A stretch of 64,000 bases of DNA from Nostoc sp. DedSLP01 (GTDB taxonomy: Bacteria; Cyanobacteriota; Cyanobacteriia; Cyanobacteriales; Nostocaceae), in the NCBI GenBank assembly GCA_034530875.2, contig JAVRCJ020000011.1, forward strand, positions 128,001-192,000. The letters run 5' to 3'. The notes beneath the pieces are model-generated. The model did not search any database. It was given only the letters and a program-made list of their open reading frames with translations, and was not told the DNA's origin. The stretch's first letter is position 1; every line of letters begins with the position of its first letter. Shown here in pieces: positions 29,509-40,631 of the stretch. The position numbers were made by a program, and so were the translations under genes.

Positions 29509-32043
29509 ATGGTAAAACAAAATAAATTTGTCAACAGGCAGCATCACCGCTATCAATCCTTAATAGCAACAGCATTATTAACTGGTAGCTTTTTCCAATT
29601 TGTTGCACCTGTATTAGCTGACGGAACTACTGCGGGTACGTCTATCAGTAATACAGCCACAGCAACCTACGAAGATCCCAACAGTCCAGGGACGACAATC
29701 AACGCCACTTCCAACACTGTGGTTGTCACCGTTGCAGAAGTTGCTGGTATCACCGTCAGTGCATCTGGTGTCACAGATACCACTGCTAGTCCTAGCAATA
29801 CAACAGTCCAAGCTGGCGATTTACTTATCTACACCTACACCTTGACCAACGTAGGTAACGACCCAACCAAATTCCACATTCCTAACCAAGCTACAACAAC
29901 CGGGCCAGGTACAGTTTCTGGTACATTACCAAATGGTGGTACAGCTAATAGCTTGCAATATAGTATCGACGGCGGTCAAAATTGGATAAACGTTCCCCAA
30001 GGCGGCATAGATACACCATCAGTTCCAGTTGGTGGCACTGTATTGGTGCGCGTACCAATTACTGTACAACCTGGTGCCCAAACCAATGATGTCATTACTG
30101 TTACCCTTGGTAATACTCCTGGTGACGCTCAAAACCAACTGCGGAGTCCTGATGGTGGCGACGTATTTACTGTAGATAATCCTGATGGTAGTCCTGGTGA
30201 GGTACCTGGCGCACCAGTTAACGGTACTCGGGAAGCTAGCGCCACCCAGCAAATTAAGGTTGGTTTAACGGTAAAGACCTACACGTTAGCCACCGTTCTC
30301 AAGATTCGCAGTGGTTATAACAATGCTGGCACGCCTGCAATTACAGACGATAAGCTGACTTACGATTTGAGTTTGCGAGTTGAGTCCAACGATCCCACAG
30401 GACAGGGAATCACACCAGCAGCTTTGACTGGCACCAATGTTCCTGGTCTTGCTGGTACTCATATTTTGGTTTCTGATGCCATTCCCGCAGGTACAGATTT
30501 GGCAGTAGCACCAACTCCGCCTCCTGGTTGGCAAACTGTTTATACCACTGACCCAGTTACAACTAATGCTAATGCAGCTACTTGGACTACAACACCACCA
30601 TCAGTCTTGGCTTCAGTAACTCGCGTTGGTTTTATCAATAATCCAGCAACAATTACTTCCATCGCTCCTGGTACGACGGTGACTGGCTTTTCGATTCAAG
30701 TCGCCGTTGAATTAAGTGCCACTTCACCTTTAACTATTGCTAATATTGCCCAATTATTTGGTCAAACACCAAGCAGCAATCTACCAGTATACGACGAATC
30801 GGGCGACCAAAATCCTAGCAACTACAACGGGCCTCCAGGTAGTATGATACCTCCCGCTGGTACAGATAGCAACAGCGATGGTGTTCCCGATACTCTACCA
30901 ACCGGCAGCGTTGATGATGGCTATATTAATACTCCAACAACTCCGGAAACTGGAACTGACGCAGGCAATAACAATAGTGGTGATGGTTCGCAAGGAGGTG
31001 AGGCGAACGTCATCACACTGCAAACACCTGTAGCTTCAGCAATACTCAACGGCCCGCAAAATGCACCGGATGCAACTGGGCCGTCAGGTGGAACCAACGA
31101 TGACTTCACGAATAAATCTTCTCTCGTTCCTCCTAATACTGCACCTGGTAGTACGCTCGATCCTCAGTCAGTTGGCTTCACAAACACAGTTAAGAATACT
31201 GGTACTGAGTCAGGGGTTTTGAAGATAGAGCCAACGCTACCAGGAGTTGCAGGAGATTTACCGAATAATACGAAGATAACGATTACCTATAATAGCCAGT
31301 CTGCTGTTTATACTTACAATAATGGAGTATTTACAACACCTGGGGCACCAATTACAATCCCTAACTTTGCTCCTAATGCAACTATCAACTATGGTGTAGA
31401 AGTTGATTTACCCGCAGGTACGCAGTTATCTACTGATATTAATAAAGGCTTCCCAGTACCCGTAACTGCTTCTATTGATAACTACACGACGGATAGTAAC
31501 GGAGATGGAATCAAGGATACTGGGAACGATAATGCCTTTGATTCATCCAACATCACCATCGATCGCGTCTACACTGGCTACCTGAAACTGTTGAAAATGT
31601 CACGAGTTCTACAAGGAACCGGGCCTGTAGTTCAAGGAAATGATGGCATCTTCAGTACTGACCCGAAAAAGCCTGCACCAGGAAACATTATTGAGTACCA
31701 AATTCAGTACAGCAATATTTCCGAGCCTCAATCTGGAACTGGTAACGTGATTTTGAATGCTAGCAAAGTTGTGATTATTGAAGATGGTACGCAAGGCTCC
31801 AACAACTGGGCAAAAGACAATGATGCCAGCGGTCAAATTGATACTAGCAACATTGTTGGTTCCGCCAAAGATTCTGGCAGTGCAACCATTCAATTCTTCA
31901 GCGGAAATCCAGCTACTAGCTCTGGTATCGACCAAACTGGAACTACGGTAAATACTGATGTCACCAAGTATGTTGATACTGTAACTGGTATCATCGCGCC
32001 GGGTGTTCAAAGAACATTTACCTTCCAACGTAAGGTCAACTAA
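29509..32043 (+). CDS. Secreted T/G/N/P-rich multi-Ig (DUF11-like) protein; putative major filament subunit
   Basis: Signal peptide ending PVLA; AGDLLIYTYTLTNVGN and PGNIIEYQIQYSN DUF11-type motifs; DxNxDG Ca-binding motifs. Confidence 0.75.
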   Translation: MVKQNKFVNRQHHRYQSLIATALLTGSFFQFVAPVLADGTTAGTSISNTATATYEDPNSPGTTINATSNTVVVTVAEVAGITVSASGVTDTTASPSNTTVQAGDLLIYTYTLTNVGNDPTKFHIPNQATTTGPGTVSGTLPNGGTANSLQYSIDGGQNWINVPQGGIDTPSVPVGGTVLVRVPITVQPGAQTNDVITVTLGNTPGDAQNQLRSPDGGDVFTVDNPDGSPGEVPGAPVNGTREASATQQIKVGLTVKTYTLATVLKIRSGYNNAGTPAITDDKLTYDLSLRVESNDPTGQGITPAALTGTNVPGLAGTHILVSDAIPAGTDLAVAPTPPPGWQTVYTTDPVTTNANAATWTTTPPSVLASVTRVGFINNPATITSIAPGTTVTGFSIQVAVELSATSPLTIANIAQLFGQTPSSNLPVYDESGDQNPSNYNGPPGSMIPPAGTDSNSDGVPDTLPTGSVDDGYINTPTTPETGTDAGNNNSGDGSQGGEANVITLQTPVASAILNGPQNAPDATGPSGGTNDDFTNKSSLVPPNTAPGSTLDPQSVGFTNTVKNTGTESGVLKIEPTLPGVAGDLPNNTKITITYNSQSAVYTYNNGVFTTPGAPITIPNFAPNATINYGVEVDLPAGTQLSTDINKGFPVPVTASIDNYTTDSNGDGIKDTGNDNAFDSSNITIDRVYTGYLKLLKMSRVLQGTGPVVQGNDGIFSTDPKKPAPGNIIEYQIQYSNISEPQSGTGNVILNASKVVIIEDGTQGSNNWAKDNDASGQIDTSNIVGSAKDSGSATIQFFSGNPATSSGIDQTGTTVNTDVTKYVDTVTGIIAPGVQRTFTFQRKVN

Positions 32044-32213: not shown

Positions 32214-32777
32214 ATGAAGGGTGCTTATCTTAGAGGTTTCGGTGCGTTTGCACTAATAGCTACAGTTACATTTTTGGCTGAATTTCCCAGATTTACAAAT
32301 ATCTCGCATTCAGGAATTGCCTACGCTCAAAATACTAAAACTCAAGGGCAAATTCAATTGCGCTTAGAAGCCGAAAAGCTAGTCATAGCTCAAGATCGGC
32401 AGGGCAAACAAAGCCAGAAATGGGAACTTTTAAAAGGTCAAGCTGTAGTCCGACCGGGAGATGTATTGAGGTATACTTTGAGTGGCGAAAATCAAAGCGA
32501 TCGCCCAGTCAAAAATTTGATTCTCAATCAACCCATTCCCCGGGGGATGGTCTACGTACTGAAATCTGCAAATATAACTAATAATGGAAAAATTACTTAT
32601 AGCATTGATGGTGGGCGTAACTTCGTCGAAAACCCCACCGTTAAAGTTACTCTTTCTAACGGCAAAGTGGAAACTAAACCAGCGCCAGCCATTGCTTATA
32701 CCCACATCCGCATACAGATTCCGTCAGTTGCAGCAAAGACGGCAGTCAAAGCGACTTATCAAACGCAAGTGCGTTGA
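32214..32777 (+). CDS. Secreted single DUF11-domain protein
   Basis: Signal peptide ending AYA; RPGDVLRYTLSGEN, PIPRGMVYV and YSIDGG motifs. Confidence 0.8.
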   Translation: MKGAYLRGFGAFALIATVTFLAEFPRFTNISHSGIAYAQNTKTQGQIQLRLEAEKLVIAQDRQGKQSQKWELLKGQAVVRPGDVLRYTLSGENQSDRPVKNLILNQPIPRGMVYVLKSANITNNGKITYSIDGGRNFVENPTVKVTLSNGKVETKPAPAIAYTHIRIQIPSVAAKTAVKATYQTQVR

Positions 32778-32950: not shown

Positions 32951-34513
32951 TTGCATCCAGAGGTGATGTGTTCGGTGAGCCGTCCTCAAAAACAAAAGCG
33001 AATTAATTCTAGTAGTATCTGGCATCAAAAATTAACAGCAATTCTTTTGCTAGGTAGTTTTTTACATAGTACTTTATCTCTATCTGTAAGAGCGCAACAA
33101 AATAACAATCTAGTTGCATCTGTGCCAATTACAAATCAAGCTAATTACACTTATACAGACCCAGCCAGTAATTATCAATATCAGGGAAATTCTAGTCAGC
33201 TTGACGTTACCCCCGATCCATTAGTTGACCCATTAGGGCGGATTTTAGGTTGTGCTGGAACGCTGTTACCAGACTATACAGGATTTTCAGTAGGGGTATA
33301 CGAACCTAATCCTAACGACCCCACGGGTACAGAATTAGGCAGTTTAGTTGCTTTAACTAGAACAGAGTTACCTGATATTCCTAATAACAATGTGCCTGGT
33401 GGAAAATCGCCAAATATTGAAAATAGTAATCCATATTTCATTACAAATAACCCTGCGGGCGTTTATAACTTTTTACTAGATCCAAACAAAGGGCAAACCG
33501 ATCCAGGTAGAATCTACATTTTTGTAGTTAATCCACCGCCGAATTCTATCTATACACAACGGCGAGTCAAGATTGAAATCCTTAATAGCGTTGGTTCGCA
33601 AGGTAACGATGTCGTGCGGTATCTTGCTACTTCTTTAGATGGTCAACCAATAAGTCTTACAGGTGAGACTAGGGTAGAACAAACAGTTGTTTTAGTTCCC
33701 AATGCAGAAGTAGTGGGGCTGGATTTATTAGCCTTTGAATTCACGACAAATTTGTGTCAAGCCAATCAATTGCAGATTATCAAAACAGGCGATCGCGCGA
33801 CTGCTGAACCTGGAGATACGGTTATCTACCGCCTATCGGTAAAAAATCTCTCTGATGCTGGTTTGAACAATGTAGTTATTACTGACAACCTACCTTTAGG
33901 ATTCCAGTTCTTGCCGAAATCTGTGCGGGGAGAGATGGATGGCGCAGCGGTTGCGATCGTATCAGAACGGAATGGCAACACGGTGATATTCCGAACAAGT
34001 ATGGCGGTTCCCGTAGGGAAAGTCTTGAATATTGCCTACGCTGCTCAATTAACGGGCGATGCTTTGCGTGGTACTGGCCGCAACAGTGCGATCGCTACTG
34101 CCCAACGAAGCGATAACGGTTTTAGCACTAAGGATGGCCCGGCAACTCACCAACTGAAAATTCGCCCTGGAATCGTTTCTGATTGTGGCACGATTATCGG
34201 CCGGGTGTTTGTCGATAAAAACTTTGATGGCGAACAACAGCGCGGCGAGCCTGGAATACCCAATGCAGTGGTTTTTCTAGAAGATGGTAACCGCATCACT
34301 ACAGATCCCAATGGTTTGTTCTCCTTAGCTAACGTTTTACCTGGGTATCACACAGGCGTACTCGACCTCAGCAGTGTAGCTGGTTATGCGTTAGCTCCCA
34401 ATAAAAAATTCCGCGAACGCAATAGCCAATCTCGCCTAGTGCATTTAGAACCGGGTGGCTTAGTACGCATGAACTTTGGTGTCACCCCATTTCAGGAGCC
34501 AGTCAAGAAATGA
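32951..34513 (+). CDS. Secreted DUF11 plus SdrD-B-like domain protein (putative adaptor)
   Basis: IIKTGDRATAEPGDTVIYRLSVKN...TDNLPLGF...GRNSAIA and GRVFVDKNFDGEQQRGEPGIPN motifs; start codon uncertain. Confidence 0.8.
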   Translation: MHPEVMCSVSRPQKQKRINSSSIWHQKLTAILLLGSFLHSTLSLSVRAQQNNNLVASVPITNQANYTYTDPASNYQYQGNSSQLDVTPDPLVDPLGRILGCAGTLLPDYTGFSVGVYEPNPNDPTGTELGSLVALTRTELPDIPNNNVPGGKSPNIENSNPYFITNNPAGVYNFLLDPNKGQTDPGRIYIFVVNPPPNSIYTQRRVKIEILNSVGSQGNDVVRYLATSLDGQPISLTGETRVEQTVVLVPNAEVVGLDLLAFEFTTNLCQANQLQIIKTGDRATAEPGDTVIYRLSVKNLSDAGLNNVVITDNLPLGFQFLPKSVRGEMDGAAVAIVSERNGNTVIFRTSMAVPVGKVLNIAYAAQLTGDALRGTGRNSAIATAQRSDNGFSTKDGPATHQLKIRPGIVSDCGTIIGRVFVDKNFDGEQQRGEPGIPNAVVFLEDGNRITTDPNGLFSLANVLPGYHTGVLDLSSVAGYALAPNKKFRERNSQSRLVHLEPGGLVRMNFGVTPFQEPVKK

Positions 34514-37500
34514 AACCTAGATTGCACTGTGCGACTATTTTCAACTTGAGGTCGATGGGGCTAATGCCGATAGCTCTCAGCCTCGTTTTGTATCCGGCCA
34601 TAGTTAAAGCAGAAGTCAGCCATGAAAAATTGCTTTTACAGGCAGAGAAGGGTGTCGAAGATCGAGCTGTTGAAAATAAAGTGGTTGAAAAAACTATGGG
34701 TGTGAATTCTGGGGTTGGTGATGCAGGAGATCGAAAGTTCGTGCAAATAAGCAAAGGCGCAAAGATTAAGAGAAGAATTCAGCAACGGGTAAATTCTTAT
34801 CGTTTGTTGGGAAGTTCTAGACAAGAGGTTAAACCTGTTGAATTGCGGCCATTTTCTTTAGCATCAGCTAGCGTTAGTTCAATTTCAGATGTCCAGGCAA
34901 TACAACCATTTCAACCAGCAAGTTCTGTGGAATTGCCTAAAGGGTTACGGAAAATTGCAGGAATTGAGGATAAGAAAGACCAATCTCCAAAGGAAATACA
35001 ACCATTTCAACCAGCAAGTTCTGTAGGTTTGCCCAAAGGGTTACGCAAAATTGCTAATGGGGACGTGGTGACAACGGGACAAGGGGAGGCTAAGGCAGAG
35101 GGACAAGGAGACAAGGAGACAACAGGACAAGAGGAGGCTAAGGCAGAGGGACAAGGAGACAAGGGGACAACAGGACAAGGGGAGGCTAAGGCAGAGGGAC
35201 AAGGAGACAAGGAGACAACAGGACAAGGGGAGGCTAAAGCACAAGGACAAGGTTTGAATGAGAATATGCCTGTGTCTTCACCTCCAGGGATTTCTACAGG
35301 AATCAAAATTCTGACTCCGACGGCTGACAGTGTTGTAGATGTACAAGCTACTACGGTGATTGTGCAGTTTCCTGCTGGTACTCAGGTGGAATTGCGAGTA
35401 AATGGGGTTTTGGTAGATGCTTCTTTGGTGGGGCGGACGGAAAGCGATGCGAGTACTAACTTAGTAACGCAGACATGGTATGGTGTTTCGTTACAAGAAG
35501 GCCAAAATACTATCTCAGCAAATGTTGTTGGCGGCAAGGAACCGCCTGTAACAGTGCAGGTGGCAGTTCGAGGAGCGCCGCAGCAACTAACTTTAGAAAC
35601 TGTTGAGTCTCGTATCCCGGCTGATGGACGTTCTACGGCTACAATCCAGGGTCAACTGCTCGATGCCAGTGGTAATCGCTCTAATTATGATGCTGTTGTG
35701 ACTTTGATACCTACTGCTGGGGACTTCGTGGAGAAAGATTTTCAACCCGATGAACCTGGATTTCAAGTGCAGGCGAAAGGAGGACAATTTAGAGCAACAT
35801 TGCGATCGCAATTGAAGGCGGAAACTGTCACAATCCGCGCCATCACTAATAATTTAGAAGCCTATACCCAACTGCAATTTGAAACGGCCTTACGTCCGAG
35901 TTTGCTGACTGGGGTCATAGATTTACGTTTGGGTGCAAGAGGTACAAATTATTATGGCAGTTTCCGCGATTTCATTCCTCCTGACAAAGACAATAGAACG
36001 CAATTAGATTTCCATTCAGCGATATTTGCCACCGGTACGATTGGAGAGTGGTTGTTTACGGGAGCATATAACAGTTCTCGGAATCTGAATGAAGATTGTA
36101 ACTGCGATAATCGCTTGTTTAGAACTTATCAATTTAGCGAGCAAAACTATCCTGTTTACGGTGATAGCTCGAAAGTTGATGCGGTCGCTCCTTCCATTGA
36201 CAGCGTATTTCTGCGTTTTGAGCGTTCAACCGGTATAGCTGGATCTGCTCCTGATTTTGCTATGTGGGGTGACTATAACACAGAAGAATTTGCGCGGCGA
36301 TCGCAGCAATTTACTTCTATAACTCGTCAGCTCCACGGTTTTAAAGCTAATTACAATTTAGGAAATTTACAAATTACAGGTTTTTACGGCAATAACTTAG
36401 AAGGATTCCAACGAGACACGATTGCTCCCGATGGTACTAGTGGTTATTATTTCCTTTCTCGCAGGCTCCTACAACCAGGTAGTGAAAATGTTTTTATCGA
36501 GTTAGAAGAACTCAATCGTCCTGGGACTGTATTGGAACGCAAACAGCTAAACCGAGGCCCAGACTACGAAATTGACTACGATCGCGGTACTTTATTATTC
36601 CGCGAACCGATTCTTCGTACCGATATTGATGAAAACGGACAAGTCTTGGTACGTCGGATTGTTGTTAGCTATCAATACGAAAGTGAAGACTCTGATAGCA
36701 ATATCTTTGCCGGTCGTTTGCAATATAATCTTTCCCGCGAACTGAATCGGGAAAGTTGGATTGGAGCAACTTACGTCCAAGAAAATCAAGGTGCGCGTGA
36801 TTTTCAACTCTACGGCGCGGACGCACTGATAGCTTTGGGTGACAAGGGTAAGCTAATCGCAGAATACGCTCATTCGAGTAATGATTCTGATGTTCTAGGA
36901 AGGGTTAGGGGTGATGCGTATCGCTTGGAAGCTGAGGGACAAATTACTAATGGCATTCAAGGACGTGCTTATTATCGGTTTGCCGATACAGGTTTTGCTA
37001 ACAATGCCACGATCAGCTTTGTACCAGGGCAAACTCGTTATGGGGCGCAGGTTATAGCTAAACTAAGTTCAACTACCACTGCCAGAGTCCAATACGATCA
37101 CGAAGACAATTTTGGTATTGCTCCCCAACCGCTAGATACTTTTGAAGAATTATTTGCACCCCGTAATGATGCCATACCAGGAAGTAAGGTTGATAATTCT
37201 CTGACGACAATTAGTGCTGGGATTCAACAACGTTTAGGTAGTGCCATCTTCGATCTAGATTGGATTCATAGGGATCGCCAAGACCGTATCTCACCCAACG
37301 CCTTGAGTGGTAATTCCGATCAATTGCGATCGCGTTTTACAGTTCCTATCGCTAAAAACTTGACTTTCCAAGCCCAAAACGAACTTAGTCTATCTTCCCA
37401 AAAAGATAGTGTTTATCCAGACCGTACTATCTTCGGGTTAAATTGGGCAGCAATTCCTGGCATCAATATTAGTCTGGCGCAACAGTTTTACAGTAGCGGT

Positions 37501-38616
37501 CAATTTTCTGGTAACTCCATCACCAGCTTGAGTGTCAACGGCGAACACAAACTCGGAAGGGATACCACAATAACAGGTCGTTACTCAATTTTGGGTGGTG
37601 CCAATGAACTGACTACACAAGGGGCAATTGGTCTAAATAACCGTTGGACTATTGCTCGTGGATTGCGGTTGAATTTAGCTTACGAACACGTATTTGGTAA
37701 CTTCTTCGGACGCACAGCAGCAGGTCAACAATATCCCCAACCTTACGCCTTCGGTCAAGCTGCATCATCAATTGGCTTTGATGGTGGCGATAGTTACAGT
37801 GTTGGTTTGGAATACAGCGATAACCCGGAATTTCAAGCCAGCGCCCGCTACGAACATCGCTCCTCTTCTGGTGGTACTAATACAGTAATTACCGCAGGTG
37901 CAGTGGGTAAAATTTCTCCATCGCTCACGGCTCTAGTACGTTATCAACAAGCAAACTCTTCCAATCAAAGACTTTCAGGATTGGCAGATACCGCTAATTT
38001 GAAAGTGGGTTTAGCTTACCGCGACCCCCACAGTGATAAATTTAATGCTTTGTTGCGTTATGAATATCGCCAAAATCCAGCGATTATTCCTGAGACTATT
38101 TTGTTAGGTAGCGGTACGGGTTCCCAAGACCATACTTTTGCTTTAGAAGCTATTTACGCCCCTAACTGGCAATGGGAATTCTACGGTAAGTATGCTTTGC
38201 GTAACAGTACTTCTTATTTGGCTAACGATTTAGTAGGTACGAGTACGGTGAATTTAGGACAATTACGGGCTACTTATCGTTTGGGATATAGCTGGGATTT
38301 AGTTGGTGAGGCTCGTTGGATTGGTCAATCTAGTTACAGTGAGACAGGCTTTGTTCTAGAAACAGGTTACTACCTGACTCCTAATTTGCGGCTTTCTGCT
38401 GGATATGTCTTCGGTAAAGTTGATGACAGGGATTTTTCCGGGACGCGATCGGCAGGAGGCCCATACTTGGGACTAACTGTCAAGCTAGATGACTTGTTTG
38501 ATGGTTTTGGACAGCAAAAACCGGTGCCACGTCAGCAACAGAAGCCAAATACAACAGAGGCGCAGATGAAAACAGAGACGCATCAAGCTGCGTCTCTAGA
38601 TGGGGCAAATTTGTAG
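34510..38616 (+). CDS. Large outer-membrane beta-barrel protein with N-terminal low-complexity linker and Ig/invasin-like domains
   Basis: Signal peptide ending VKA; PADGRSTATIQGQLLDASG (Big_1-like); about 800 aa of alternating amphipathic beta-strands; ATGA overlap with the upstream gene. Confidence 0.75.
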   Translation: MKPRLHCATIFNLRSMGLMPIALSLVLYPAIVKAEVSHEKLLLQAEKGVEDRAVENKVVEKTMGVNSGVGDAGDRKFVQISKGAKIKRRIQQRVNSYRLLGSSRQEVKPVELRPFSLASASVSSISDVQAIQPFQPASSVELPKGLRKIAGIEDKKDQSPKEIQPFQPASSVGLPKGLRKIANGDVVTTGQGEAKAEGQGDKETTGQEEAKAEGQGDKGTTGQGEAKAEGQGDKETTGQGEAKAQGQGLNENMPVSSPPGISTGIKILTPTADSVVDVQATTVIVQFPAGTQVELRVNGVLVDASLVGRTESDASTNLVTQTWYGVSLQEGQNTISANVVGGKEPPVTVQVAVRGAPQQLTLETVESRIPADGRSTATIQGQLLDASGNRSNYDAVVTLIPTAGDFVEKDFQPDEPGFQVQAKGGQFRATLRSQLKAETVTIRAITNNLEAYTQLQFETALRPSLLTGVIDLRLGARGTNYYGSFRDFIPPDKDNRTQLDFHSAIFATGTIGEWLFTGAYNSSRNLNEDCNCDNRLFRTYQFSEQNYPVYGDSSKVDAVAPSIDSVFLRFERSTGIAGSAPDFAMWGDYNTEEFARRSQQFTSITRQLHGFKANYNLGNLQITGFYGNNLEGFQRDTIAPDGTSGYYFLSRRLLQPGSENVFIELEELNRPGTVLERKQLNRGPDYEIDYDRGTLLFREPILRTDIDENGQVLVRRIVVSYQYESEDSDSNIFAGRLQYNLSRELNRESWIGATYVQENQGARDFQLYGADALIALGDKGKLIAEYAHSSNDSDVLGRVRGDAYRLEAEGQITNGIQGRAYYRFADTGFANNATISFVPGQTRYGAQVIAKLSSTTTARVQYDHEDNFGIAPQPLDTFEELFAPRNDAIPGSKVDNSLTTISAGIQQRLGSAIFDLDWIHRDRQDRISPNALSGNSDQLRSRFTVPIAKNLTFQAQNELSLSSQKDSVYPDRTIFGLNWAAIPGINISLAQQFYSSGQFSGNSITSLSVNGEHKLGRDTTITGRYSILGGANELTTQGAIGLNNRWTIARGLRLNLAYEHVFGNFFGRTAAGQQYPQPYAFGQAASSIGFDGGDSYSVGLEYSDNPEFQASARYEHRSSSGGTNTVITAGAVGKISPSLTALVRYQQANSSNQRLSGLADTANLKVGLAYRDPHSDKFNALLRYEYRQNPAIIPETILLGSGTGSQDHTFALEAIYAPNWQWEFYGKYALRNSTSYLANDLVGTSTVNLGQLRATYRLGYSWDLVGEARWIGQSSYSETGFVLETGYYLTPNLRLSAGYVFGKVDDRDFSGTRSAGGPYLGLTVKLDDLFDGFGQQKPVPRQQQKPNTTEAQMKTETHQAASLDGANL
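34899..35253 (+). repeat. Intragenic repeats: 2x about 60 bp (96-bp period) and about 3.8x 48 bp
   Basis: IQPFQPASSVxLPKGLRKIA twice; TTGQGEAKAEGQGDKE about four times. Confidence 0.9.
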
Positions 38617-38624
38617 TTGTAATT

Positions 38625-39212
38625 ATGACTAAACCCAAATTTCAGGGCAAATACCGAGTAGGATCTACTAGGTTGCCAACTCGTAATTACGCCGCTAATG
38701 GGTGGTATTTCATCACAATTTGCACAAGCGATCGCACTCATTTCTTAGGAAGTGTAATTACAGGAAATGTACAATTATCAAAAATTGGAGAAATAGCCCA
38801 ACAATTCTGGGCAGAAATTCCAAATCATTTTGCCTACACCTATACAGATGCTTATGTCGTCATGCCCAATCACGTACATGGGATTATTGCGATCGACCGT
38901 CCCCAAAATGTAGAGACGTTGCATTGCAACGTCTCTACACAACGTGATACCCCATGCAACATTGCACAAGAACAATTCATGTCTGACATATCTCCTAAAG
39001 CGGGTTCATTGGGAGCGATAGTGCGTTCGTACAAATCTGCTGTGACCCGTTGGTGTGGGAAAAACGGTTTTGAAAACTTTGCTTGGCAAGAGCGATTTTA
39101 CGAACACATCATTCGTGCTGATGGTTCTTTAGATCGAATTCGAGAATATATCATTAATAATCCTACTAAATGGGAGAATGACAAAAACAATCCTATAAAT
39201 TTATGGATGTGA
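38625..39212 (+). mobile_element. REP-associated tyrosine transposase (RAYT, Y1 HUH, IS200-like)
   Basis: YFITICT, VVMPNHVHGII (HUH), IVRSYKS, WQERFYEHIIR and YIINNP motifs; adjacent GTAG-type palindromes. Confidence 0.9.
38909..38939. repeat. REP palindrome inside the RAYT gene
   Basis: TGTAGAGACGTTGCA-T-TGCAACGTCTCTACA. Confidence 0.9.
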
Positions 39213-39230
39213 TGTTTATACCCCTAATTA

Positions 39231-39259
39231 TAGAGACGTTGCATTGCAACGTCTCTACA
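39231..39259. repeat. REP palindrome downstream of the RAYT gene
   Basis: TAGAGACGTTGCA-T-TGCAACGTCTCTACA, identical core to the intragenic copy. Confidence 0.9.
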
Positions 39260-39266
39260 AATCGTG

Positions 39267-40631
39267 TTAGACAGACAAGGGTTGTCTGGTTTCAACTGGT
39301 TCGCCAGTCAAGCTAAAAGCGCGAACTTCGGTAATTTTTACCTTTACTAATTGCCCTTTCAATTCTTTGATGTCGCCAGTAAAGAAGGTTAAACGATTAC
39401 CGCCTGTGCGTCCCATGACTTGAGTTTTATCTTTCGGGTTTTGGTCTTCGACTAGAACTTCTTCAATACGTCCGAAGTAACGTTGCGATCGCTCGCTTGC
39501 TTTGATGGCTACTAGATGGTTCAATCTTTGTAGGCGATCGCTTTTAACTTCTTCACTCAGTTGATTGTCCCACAAAGCGGCTGGCGTTCCTGGGCGTGGC
39601 GAATATGCGGCTGTATTCAACATATCAAAGCCGATATCTTCCACGAGTTTTAAGGTATTTTCAAACTGTTGTTCTGTTTCCCCAGGAAATCCCACAATTG
39701 CATCGGCACTAATTGACGCATCTGGCATATATTGCCGAATGGTATCGATGATTCGGCGATATTTTTCATGAGTATAACCCCGCGACATCGCCTTTAAAAC
39801 TTCATTATCCCCAGACTGAAAGGGAATGTGGAAGTGTTCGCAAACTTTGGGCAATTCAGCACAAGCCCGAATTAGTCTTTCAGTAAAATAGCGTGGATGG
39901 CTTGTAGCAAATCTTATTCTCTCAATTCCTGGCACATCATGGACGTAATATAGTAAATCTGTGAAGTTGTGCAGATGTCGTCCTTCTGGCGTGCTTCCTG
40001 GCAAATCTCTGCCGTAAGCGTCAATATTTTGTCCGAGTAAGGTAATTTCCTTGTAACCTTGTCGTCCTAATTCGGCCATTTCTTTCCGAATAGCTTCTGG
40101 CGTGCGAGATTGTTCGATACCGCGGACGTTAGGGACTACACAGTAAGTGCAGCGTTCGTTACAGCCGTAAATCACATTCACCCAAGCAGTGACTTTACTA
40201 TCTCGTCGCGGCTGGGTGATATCTTCGATAATGTGAACCGGCTCAGTTGCCACAACTTGGTTACCTTCAAACACTGATTCCAATAAATCTTTGAGGCGGT
40301 TGGCGTGTTGCGGCCCCATTACCAAGTCTAATTCTGGCACCCGCCGCAACAGCGCTTCGCCTTCTTGTTGGGCAACGCAACCAGCAACAATCAAAGTTAA
40401 ATCGGGCTGTTCGTGCTTGCGCTTTGCCTGCCTGCCAAGGTAGGAGTATACTTTTTGCTCGGCATTATCTCGAATTGTGCAGGTATTGTAGAGAATCACA
40501 TCTGCATTGTTTGGATCTTCCGACCACTCAAAGCCCATGTCTTCCAAAACGCCAGCCATGCGTTCTGAGTCAGCTTTATTCATCTGACAACCGAAAGTAG
40601 TGATGTGATAGTGGCGTTTAGAACTGGTCAT
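39267..40631 (-). CDS. miaB: tRNA-2-methylthio-N6-dimethylallyladenosine synthase
   Basis: [27 protein letters not shown] radical-SAM motif and TRAM domain. Confidence 0.97.

Follow-up and report, generated by a model that had tools for sequence, protein, structure and literature searches.

A conserved Nostoc operon with a split DUF11-type domain as the candidate source of a covalent, head-to-tail surface fibre

Results

This work deals with an operon of four genes in Nostoc sp. DedSLP01, located in a stretch of 64,000 nucleotides (nt) of contig JAVRCJ020000011.1 (assembly GCA_034530875.2, positions 128,001 to 192,000 of the forward strand), referred to here as the window, whose numbering is used below unless another sequence is named. 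The open reading frame at 29509-32043 on the forward strand codes for a secreted protein of 844 amino acids (aa), which we call the shaft, and its closest named relatives are Nostoc proteins of no more than 91% identity. It is followed by genes for a 187-aa protein, a 520-aa adaptor and a 1368-aa barrel protein (Table 1), and this order is found in 87 of 91 loci, the exceptions being two that are cut short, one with another arrangement and one lone shaft gene. A lone and divergent (46%) shaft gene at L106:9890-12289 has none of the small, adaptor and barrel genes within 10 kb of it and may rely on an operon elsewhere in its genome. Scanning for promoters and terminators gave fewer sites than in shuffled sequences.

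Table 1. Features of the shaft gene and of the genes that follow it in the window
Feature	Position	Strand	Basis
Sec-type signal peptide, residues 1-37	29509..29619	+	Reading by eye; homolog matches begin at the same mature position
Donor beta-hairpin, residues 38-76; Asn48 codon 29650-29652	29620..29736	+	Model strands, mature 8-18 and 26-37
Domain 1, complete immunoglobulin (Ig)-like, without isopeptide triad	29737..30267	+	Model; fold search
Domain 2, DUF7925 (PF25546), complete CnaA-like, own triad Lys265/Asp323/Asn412	30277..31023	+	Pfam, E 3.2e-72
Domain 3, complete Ig-like	31030..31578	+	Model; fold search
Domain 4, truncated DUF11/CLIPPER-type acceptor; Lys696 31594-31596, Glu758 31780-31782	31579..32043	+	Homolog alignment, model, profile comparison
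187-aa secreted acceptor-only protein, putative chaperone or non-covalent cap	32214..32777	+	TIGR01451 match; register against domain 4
520-aa donor-only adaptor/terminator; start maybe a few codons later	32951..34513	+	Pfam/NCBIfam; donor comparison
1368-aa outer-membrane beta-barrel protein, putative export/anchor platform	34510..38616	+	Weak Invasin_D3/Big_1 matches; model

An initial annotation, made from the letters of this DNA, had proposed that the 844-aa protein polymerises head to tail, and the motifs that it quoted are all where it placed them: the mature N-terminus, DGTTAGTSISNTATATYEDP, is encoded from 29620 on, and the C-terminal domain runs from LKLLK at 31582 through PAPGNIIEYQIQYSN and IIED to RTFTFQRKVN and the stop codon, with DSNSDG at 453 and DSNGDG at 662 of the shaft. 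Residues 1-37 have a basic start, a hydrophobic core and VLA followed by the first mature Asp, and were judged by eye to be a Sec signal peptide. The AlphaFold2 model of the mature shaft (mean predicted local distance difference test score (pLDDT) 92.9, predicted template modelling score (pTM) 0.70) consists of an N-terminal hairpin, with strands at pLDDT 90-97, and four Ig-like domains. Domain 1 aligned with 7wrk_A (Z 9.2, root-mean-square deviation (rmsd) 3.1, 128 residues aligned), and domain 2 with the whole CLIPPER structure 9ifr_A, over residues 19-139 of the latter (Z 8.5, rmsd 2.6, 121 residues aligned). The top fold matches of domain 2 were BcpA, SpaD and RrgB, pilins of sortase pili. 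DUF7925 matched residues 260-439 with 242.7 bits, against a cut-off of 26.5, and the triad Lys265/Asp323/Asn412 is kept in 106 of 121 aligned homologs. The same Lys/Asp/Asn triad is predicted for DUF7925 in Table 1 of a published survey (PMC12617251), and domain 2 is predicted to carry an internal isopeptide bond between these residues. A Foldseek search with the whole shaft returned generic Ig chains only, with TM-scores of at most 0.16 of the query, and no sequence in the Protein Data Bank (PDB) matched the shaft at E up to 1.

The last domain of the shaft is incomplete. In the strand list of the model, domain 2 runs as the Lys strand, a second strand, the acid strand, three more, the Asn strand and one last strand; the first six have counterparts in domain 4, which then stops, while the counterparts of the last two make up the N-terminal hairpin. 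The truncation seen by the initial annotation is therefore real, but two of eight strands are missing and not one. No DUF11 (PF01345) match was obtained on the shaft in Pfam/NCBIfam searches, where DUF7925 was the only family above cut-off, and the DUF11 assignment of domain 4 follows from its modelled strand order and from an hhalign comparison with the DUF11 domain of the neighbouring adaptor (probability 77%, E 2e-05), in which Glu758 falls on the catalytic Asp312. Shafts of Thermus and D. ficus do pass the PF01345 cut-off, and their C-terminal match ends at profile positions 89 and 92 of 114. Read from sequence and model together, the domain is of DUF11/CLIPPER type minus its last two strands, and is CnaA-like, as the DUF11 fold is described (PMC12617251), rather than CnaB-like, as had been suggested alongside DUF11.

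Conservation was followed in an alignment of 121 sequences, made of the mature shaft and 120 full-length relatives (110 taken from 150 listed representatives at 50% identity, and 10 closer matches); this choice favoured matches at both ends, and the sequences are related to one another. Lys696 and an acid at position 758 are present in all 121 (Glu in 115), and Asn48 in 120, and in the alignment they stand in the CLIPPER register with the triad split across the joint, Lys696 and Glu758 in domain 4 and Asn48 in the hairpin. The complete split triad, whose existence the initial annotation had anticipated, is thus found in 120/121, compared with 106/121 for the internal triad of domain 2. Asn69 of the hairpin is conserved as well (118/121), and the first mature residue is variable. 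The chains end a median of 3 residues past Arg841, before the Asn strand, and the longest tail has 26 residues; the three triad residues lie in one contiguous domain only in the six fusion proteins described below. Covariation (mutual information with average product correction, 300 sequences, effective 144) was dominated by invariant columns and gave no signal between the donor and domain 4.

The pairing of hairpin and domain 4 was modelled as two separate chains, domain 4 (mature 645-807) and the hairpin with domain 1 (mature 1-216). The complex score was 0.89, whereas the best of three controls had 0.00; of 157 solved complexes, 116 attain the mark used for this score, as do 2 of 215 mismatched pairs. 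Runs agreed in at least 97% of contacts, with a partner pLDDT of 91. The interface with domain 4 consists almost entirely of the hairpin, with contacts centred on hairpin residues 7-21 and 29-41; in mature numbering, residues 14-17 pair with 717-720, adjoining Glu758 (mature 721), and residues 31-34 pair with 657-659 in the Lys strand. Model and alignment support the completion of the truncated C-terminal domain by the N-terminal hairpin. The donor is a two-strand hairpin and not the single strand expected at first.

Natural fusions of the joint point in the same direction. Domain 4 is followed by the hairpin within 1-6 residues of the same chain in 6 of the 150 representatives, large adhesin-like proteins of 887-2877 residues with RTX, DUF4347, cadherin or type IX secretion system (T9SS) domains. 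By their sequences they capture the proposed joint as a single chain, which supports the pairing of hairpin and domain 4 independently. The Lys of domain 4 is present in 135 of 135 C-terminal copies and in four of the six fused copies, a loss that is expected if Lys matters most where the joint lacks a peptide bond, though six proteins are a small sample. In these fusions (P0124, P0128, P0132, P0147, P0162 and P0206) the blocks of the shaft are permuted across the subunit joint, and one of them is T9SS-tailed and one is named from Arsenicibacter; shaft blocks inside adhesin-like proteins may represent domain capture between secretion systems.

The partners of the shaft each carry one half of the joint at most. 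The 520-aa adaptor has an N-terminal donor hairpin (Asn62), which matched the donor of the shaft with an hhalign probability of 96%, a complete DUF11 domain (Lys278/Asp312/Asn378) and a C-terminal SdrD_B-like domain, with no open acceptor; Asn62 and each residue of its internal triad are kept in 88/88. The converse is seen in a tip class, payload proteins with a truncated C-terminal acceptor, Lys and Asp included, and no donor. A tip-like gene lies 3' of the barrel gene in 50 of the 81 loci with at least 1500 bases of room, and the donor motif is missing from the first 80 residues of every one. In this genome a tip ortholog was recovered with a wider profile, a profile built on the shaft alone having given none, on contig C5 (G000:C5:264797-267739; L124:6798-9740): it is an orphan, secreted protein of 980 aa that combines lamin-tail and FlgD-Ig domains with a truncated acceptor at its C-terminus (Lys797/Asp879), and its gene is likely a displaced tip gene. 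At the position of the tip gene of relatives, 8 nt past the barrel stop, the window has a gene resembling transposases of the REP-associated tyrosine type (38625-39269; NF047646, below cut-off), and a 49-nt palindromic repeat occurs inside this gene (38901) and just past it (39221). The same genome codes for an 1831-aa protein with two internal DUF11 domains (G000:C53:9681-15176).

The 187-aa protein is a single DUF11-like acceptor domain in which the bond-forming residues are replaced, with Ala at the Lys position (Ala53 in 83/89, Lys in 0/89) and Gln at the acid position (Gln106 in 88/89). Its sequence makes it most likely a putative chaperone that would reversibly sheathe donor hairpins in the periplasm, or else a non-covalent cap. 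A PDB sequence search with it gave weak, unrelated matches only, and a PapD search confined to the operon had no match. The 187-aa protein is the sole chaperone candidate there. The system hence has five classes, shaft, barrel, adaptor, tip and putative chaperone, with four polarity classes read from sequence. The initial annotation overlooked this wider system.

The gene for the 1368-aa barrel protein overlaps that of the adaptor by 4 nt. The protein has N-terminal low-complexity repeats and two Ig-like domains, and its model (residues 262-1335) is weak (pLDDT 64.8, pTM 0.38), with 30 strands of at least 8 residues between model residues 469-1063; this weak model gave partial fold matches to many outer-membrane barrels, with no usher among the matches listed, and no usher family was matched by any operon protein in Pfam/NCBIfam. 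The variable N-terminal part is encoded by a region with a 64-nt duplicated motif (IQPFQP; 34895-35054) and 48-nt tandem repeats rich in G/E/Q/K (35059-35250). In two loci the donor hairpin and the barrel form one protein, which puts the adaptor at the base of the fibre. All3289 of Anabaena PCC 7120 may be an ortholog of the barrel. All3289 is described as a 1289-aa protein with a C-terminal membrane anchor (PMC9705863).

Outside this genome, the same part classes were found in Thermus thermophilus HB8 on pTT27 (TTH_RS10905 to RS10925), in Deinococcus sp. QL22 and in D. ficus, and, with broken genes, in Novosphingobium THN1 and Acinetobacter haemolyticus. In these records and genome G076, all outside the oxygenic cyanobacteria, the donor motif is present in 5/5 shafts and 6/6 adaptors, but in 0/5 tips and 0/6 small proteins; Lys and Asp could be read by eye in each of the 5 shafts and each of the 5 tips, and the small proteins lack the acid. 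A phylum sample of 151 genomes had the barrel in 23, DUF7925 in 13 and a match to the tip acceptor query in 17. The number of shaft domains varies: of the 150 representatives, 110 have the full set of four, 10 are without domain 2 and 1 is without both domain 1 and domain 2, and there is also a version of 333 aa. Some cyanobacteria (G144, with L018 and L025, G038 and G080) have two or three loci for the barrel, which suggests, from gene content, several parallel fibre systems.

Calcium stabilisation through DSNSDG and DSNGDG, also proposed at first, finds no support in conservation: the pattern Dx[DN]x[DN]G is at the same site in only 17/121 and 33/121 homologs, and somewhere in 84/121. By conservation, the acidic sites Asp429/Glu430/Asp433, Asp484, Glu498 and Asp532 would be better candidates. 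The shaft may bind calcium, but the two motif sites are no conserved feature.

Discussion

Covalent pili are a hallmark of the sortase systems of Gram-positive bacteria, and for the pili that diderms build by strand exchange, non-covalent joints are described. The operon studied here probably codes for a surface fibre of diderms that has not been described before, a covalent head-to-tail polymer of the 844-aa shaft. After Sec export, the hairpin would insert into the truncated domain 4 of another subunit and complete its fold, and Glu758 would then catalyse a spontaneous isopeptide bond between Lys696 and Asn48 across the joint with loss of ammonia, giving a covalent chain without sortase. The polarity of the fibre follows from the partner classes, since the tip is acceptor-only and the adaptor donor-only. 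The tip, with its variable payload and its Lys and Asp kept, would enter first and end up outermost; each new shaft would fill the open acceptor of the subunit before it with its own hairpin; and the adaptor would stop growth and, by its SdrD_B-like end, fasten the fibre to the 1368-aa barrel, with the 187-aa protein shielding donor hairpins in the periplasm until use. Around the modelled insertion, the polymer length, the bond, the chaperone role, export through the barrel and the adhesive function are what we infer.

Several observations weigh against this reading. The homolog counts are not independent, because of the selection for full length and the kinship of the sequences. As the two modelled chains are the halves of one split domain, the complex score may reflect likeness to solved CLIPPER/CnaA folds; moreover, the complex model speaks for complementation and is silent on whether it occurs in cis or in trans. 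That the hairpin has a high pLDDT when a single chain is modelled may mean that it closes on its own domain 4, and such a shaft would be a ring-shaped, circularly permuted and self-crosslinked monomer, for which low-confidence hinges at mature residues 217-219 and 470-472 also speak. In three of the six fusions the full set of four domains is present but permuted, which a ring-shaped monomer would yield too. The other three, however, span the joint with only part of the domain set, and shafts of two, three, four or more domains retain both ends, a variation that fits a chain better than a ring. Donor-only and acceptor-only partners are incapable of completing themselves, which favours a linear polymer over self-closure. 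We regard the closed monomer as highly improbable, and complementation in trans, in some form, as very likely; the next subunit is thus the most likely source of the donor in silico, as had been suggested at first.

A second group of objections concerns the bond. The two-chain fold that had been put forward as a check showed the insertion of the hairpin, but the pair Lys696-Asn48 is outside the 25 best-defined contacts listed, in which Lys696 stands beside Ser68, Asn69 and Val71, so that the geometry of the triad is left unsupported by the complex model. CnaA domains typically have Asp as the catalyst, yet most shafts here have Glu758, and the 187-aa protein keeps a Lys (Lys55, codon 32376-32378; 87/89) two residues past the canonical position. 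The same head-to-tail complementation could accordingly be non-covalent, with Lys, Glu and Asn playing a merely structural part; the absence of Lys from two of the six fused copies is in line with this, as are reports that the bond is absent from some DUF11 domains (PMC12617251) and that oligomers of BsaA withstand sodium dodecyl sulfate (SDS) without it (PMC11580942). We consider a non-covalent joint unlikely, given that the residue types are exactly those of isopeptide domains, in the CLIPPER register and more strictly conserved than the internal triad of the shaft, and that the tips and shafts found in other phyla retain them but the small protein lacks them.

It is also conceivable that the parts form a short, defined assembly, in which the barrel carries a modular fibrillar adhesin made of one adaptor, one or a few shaft spacers and one tip, and the small protein acts as a stopper. 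Five proteobacterial records (Roseovarius, Phyllobacterium, Vibrio, Eleftheria and Croceibacterium) have homologs of the barrel next to a single giant adhesin, with no shaft or small genes in the stretches examined, so the barrel can serve non-polymeric cargo. Nevertheless, the shaft bears both a donor and a compatible acceptor, and nothing in its sequence stops repeated addition; a short assembly appears improbable to us compared with the covalent polymer. The adhesins of these records (L110, L111, L112, L113 and L114) have DUF11/SdrD_B domains, some exceed 3000 aa, and the barrel homologs are often annotated as 'TonB-dependent receptor'. The barrel beside them is possibly an unrecognised export route for adhesins. 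From gene content we infer that it exports or anchors cargo that ends in an SdrD_B-like domain, and that polymerisation of the pilin module would take the place of a long repeat stalk.

Comparison with known systems shows where the shaft differs from each. The CLIPPER/DUF11 (PF01345) and DUF7925 (PF25546) domains (PDB 9IFR; PMC12617251) are likewise CnaA-like, with Lys in the first strand, an acid, and Asn in the penultimate strand, but the bonds described there are intramolecular ones in stalk repeats, and the word 'donor' does not occur in the main text of that report, whereas here the domain is split and the bond would be between chains. The closest chemistry is that reported for Clostridium perfringens BsaA, of the TasA family, in which Asn on an N-terminal donor and Lys with a catalytic Glu on the acceptor react spontaneously without sortase (PMC11580942); the shaft has an N-E-K triad of this kind split between donor and acceptor, in Asn48, Glu758 and Lys696. 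BsaA is a matrix protein of a Gram-positive species with a single short donor and the peptidase SipW (PMC11580942), unlike the shaft, with its four domains, two-strand donor, CLIPPER fold and outer-membrane barrel, and no TasA-family or SipW match was found by Pfam/NCBIfam in the four operon proteins and the next gene.

Chaperone-usher pili (Fim/Pap) are alike in polarity, with a donorless tip, a shaft with donor and groove, a terminator, a periplasmic helper and an outer-membrane barrel (PMC13721041), and the model of the shaft shares with them an incomplete Ig fold completed by an N-terminal extension, of two strands instead of one. Their joints are single-strand and non-covalent, their chaperone donates a strand and their usher has 24 strands (PMC13721041), while here the helper resembles an acceptor mimic, a low-confidence model of the barrel shows about 30 strands, and the operon proteins matched neither an usher nor a PapD family of Pfam. 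The system is chaperone-usher-like in polarity and BsaA-like in chemistry, and a member of neither. Sortase pili (BcpA, SpaD, RrgB) also have multi-domain CnaA/CnaB pilins in a covalent chain, but the link of the shaft would be autocatalytic and from side chain to side chain, and neither LPXTG nor a membrane anchor is present at its C-terminus (FQRKVN); in the 121 homologs the tail past Arg841 has 26 residues at most.

The Sulfolobus thread, Saci_0406, had been cited as the precedent for the isopeptide bond. It does share head-to-tail donor-strand complementation, a proposed covalent link and a cap protein (PMC9715654), but the bond proposed for it links Asn57 with the N-terminal amino group of Asp24 in subunit n+2 and is not a Lys-Asn bond, and the thread is archaeal and glycosylated, with no outer membrane (PMC9715654). 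A bond of that type to a conserved Asp N-terminus does not fit the shaft, whose first mature residue is Asp in 22/121. The chemical precedent is BsaA, and the thread is a looser parallel. Two other leads were rejected: HesF/Alr0267, which has no DUF11 link and no signal peptide in the sources consulted, and whose 2075-bp fragment with promoter is shorter than 844 codons (PMC4390845, 10.64898/2026.06.08.730779), and CryoSeek TLP-1, a tubule of single-domain subunits with donor strands between n and n+4 (PMC11494351). In the literature searched, mostly outside subscription journals, no paper on this operon or on a split-DUF11 pilus was found.

With less confidence than we have in the polymer itself, we tentatively raise the possibility of a separate class of diderm pili over Cyanobacteria, Deinococcota and Proteobacteria, defined by multi-domain subunits that exchange a two-strand hairpin, self-catalysed Lys-Asn locks, as a natural ligation of split domains put to use in polymerisation, an inverse chaperone that covers the donor and not the groove, and export by an unclassified barrel of about 30 strands, whose relatives in other bacteria serve single giant adhesins. 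If the proposal is true, a covalent fibre that needs no sortase and has an outer-membrane platform of its own adds a class of pilus and probably a secretion route, and the split domain could serve as a natural, possibly thermostable, protein ligation pair. It would also explain what a conserved operon does that mat-forming and symbiotic Nostocales share with Thermus thermophilus HB8.

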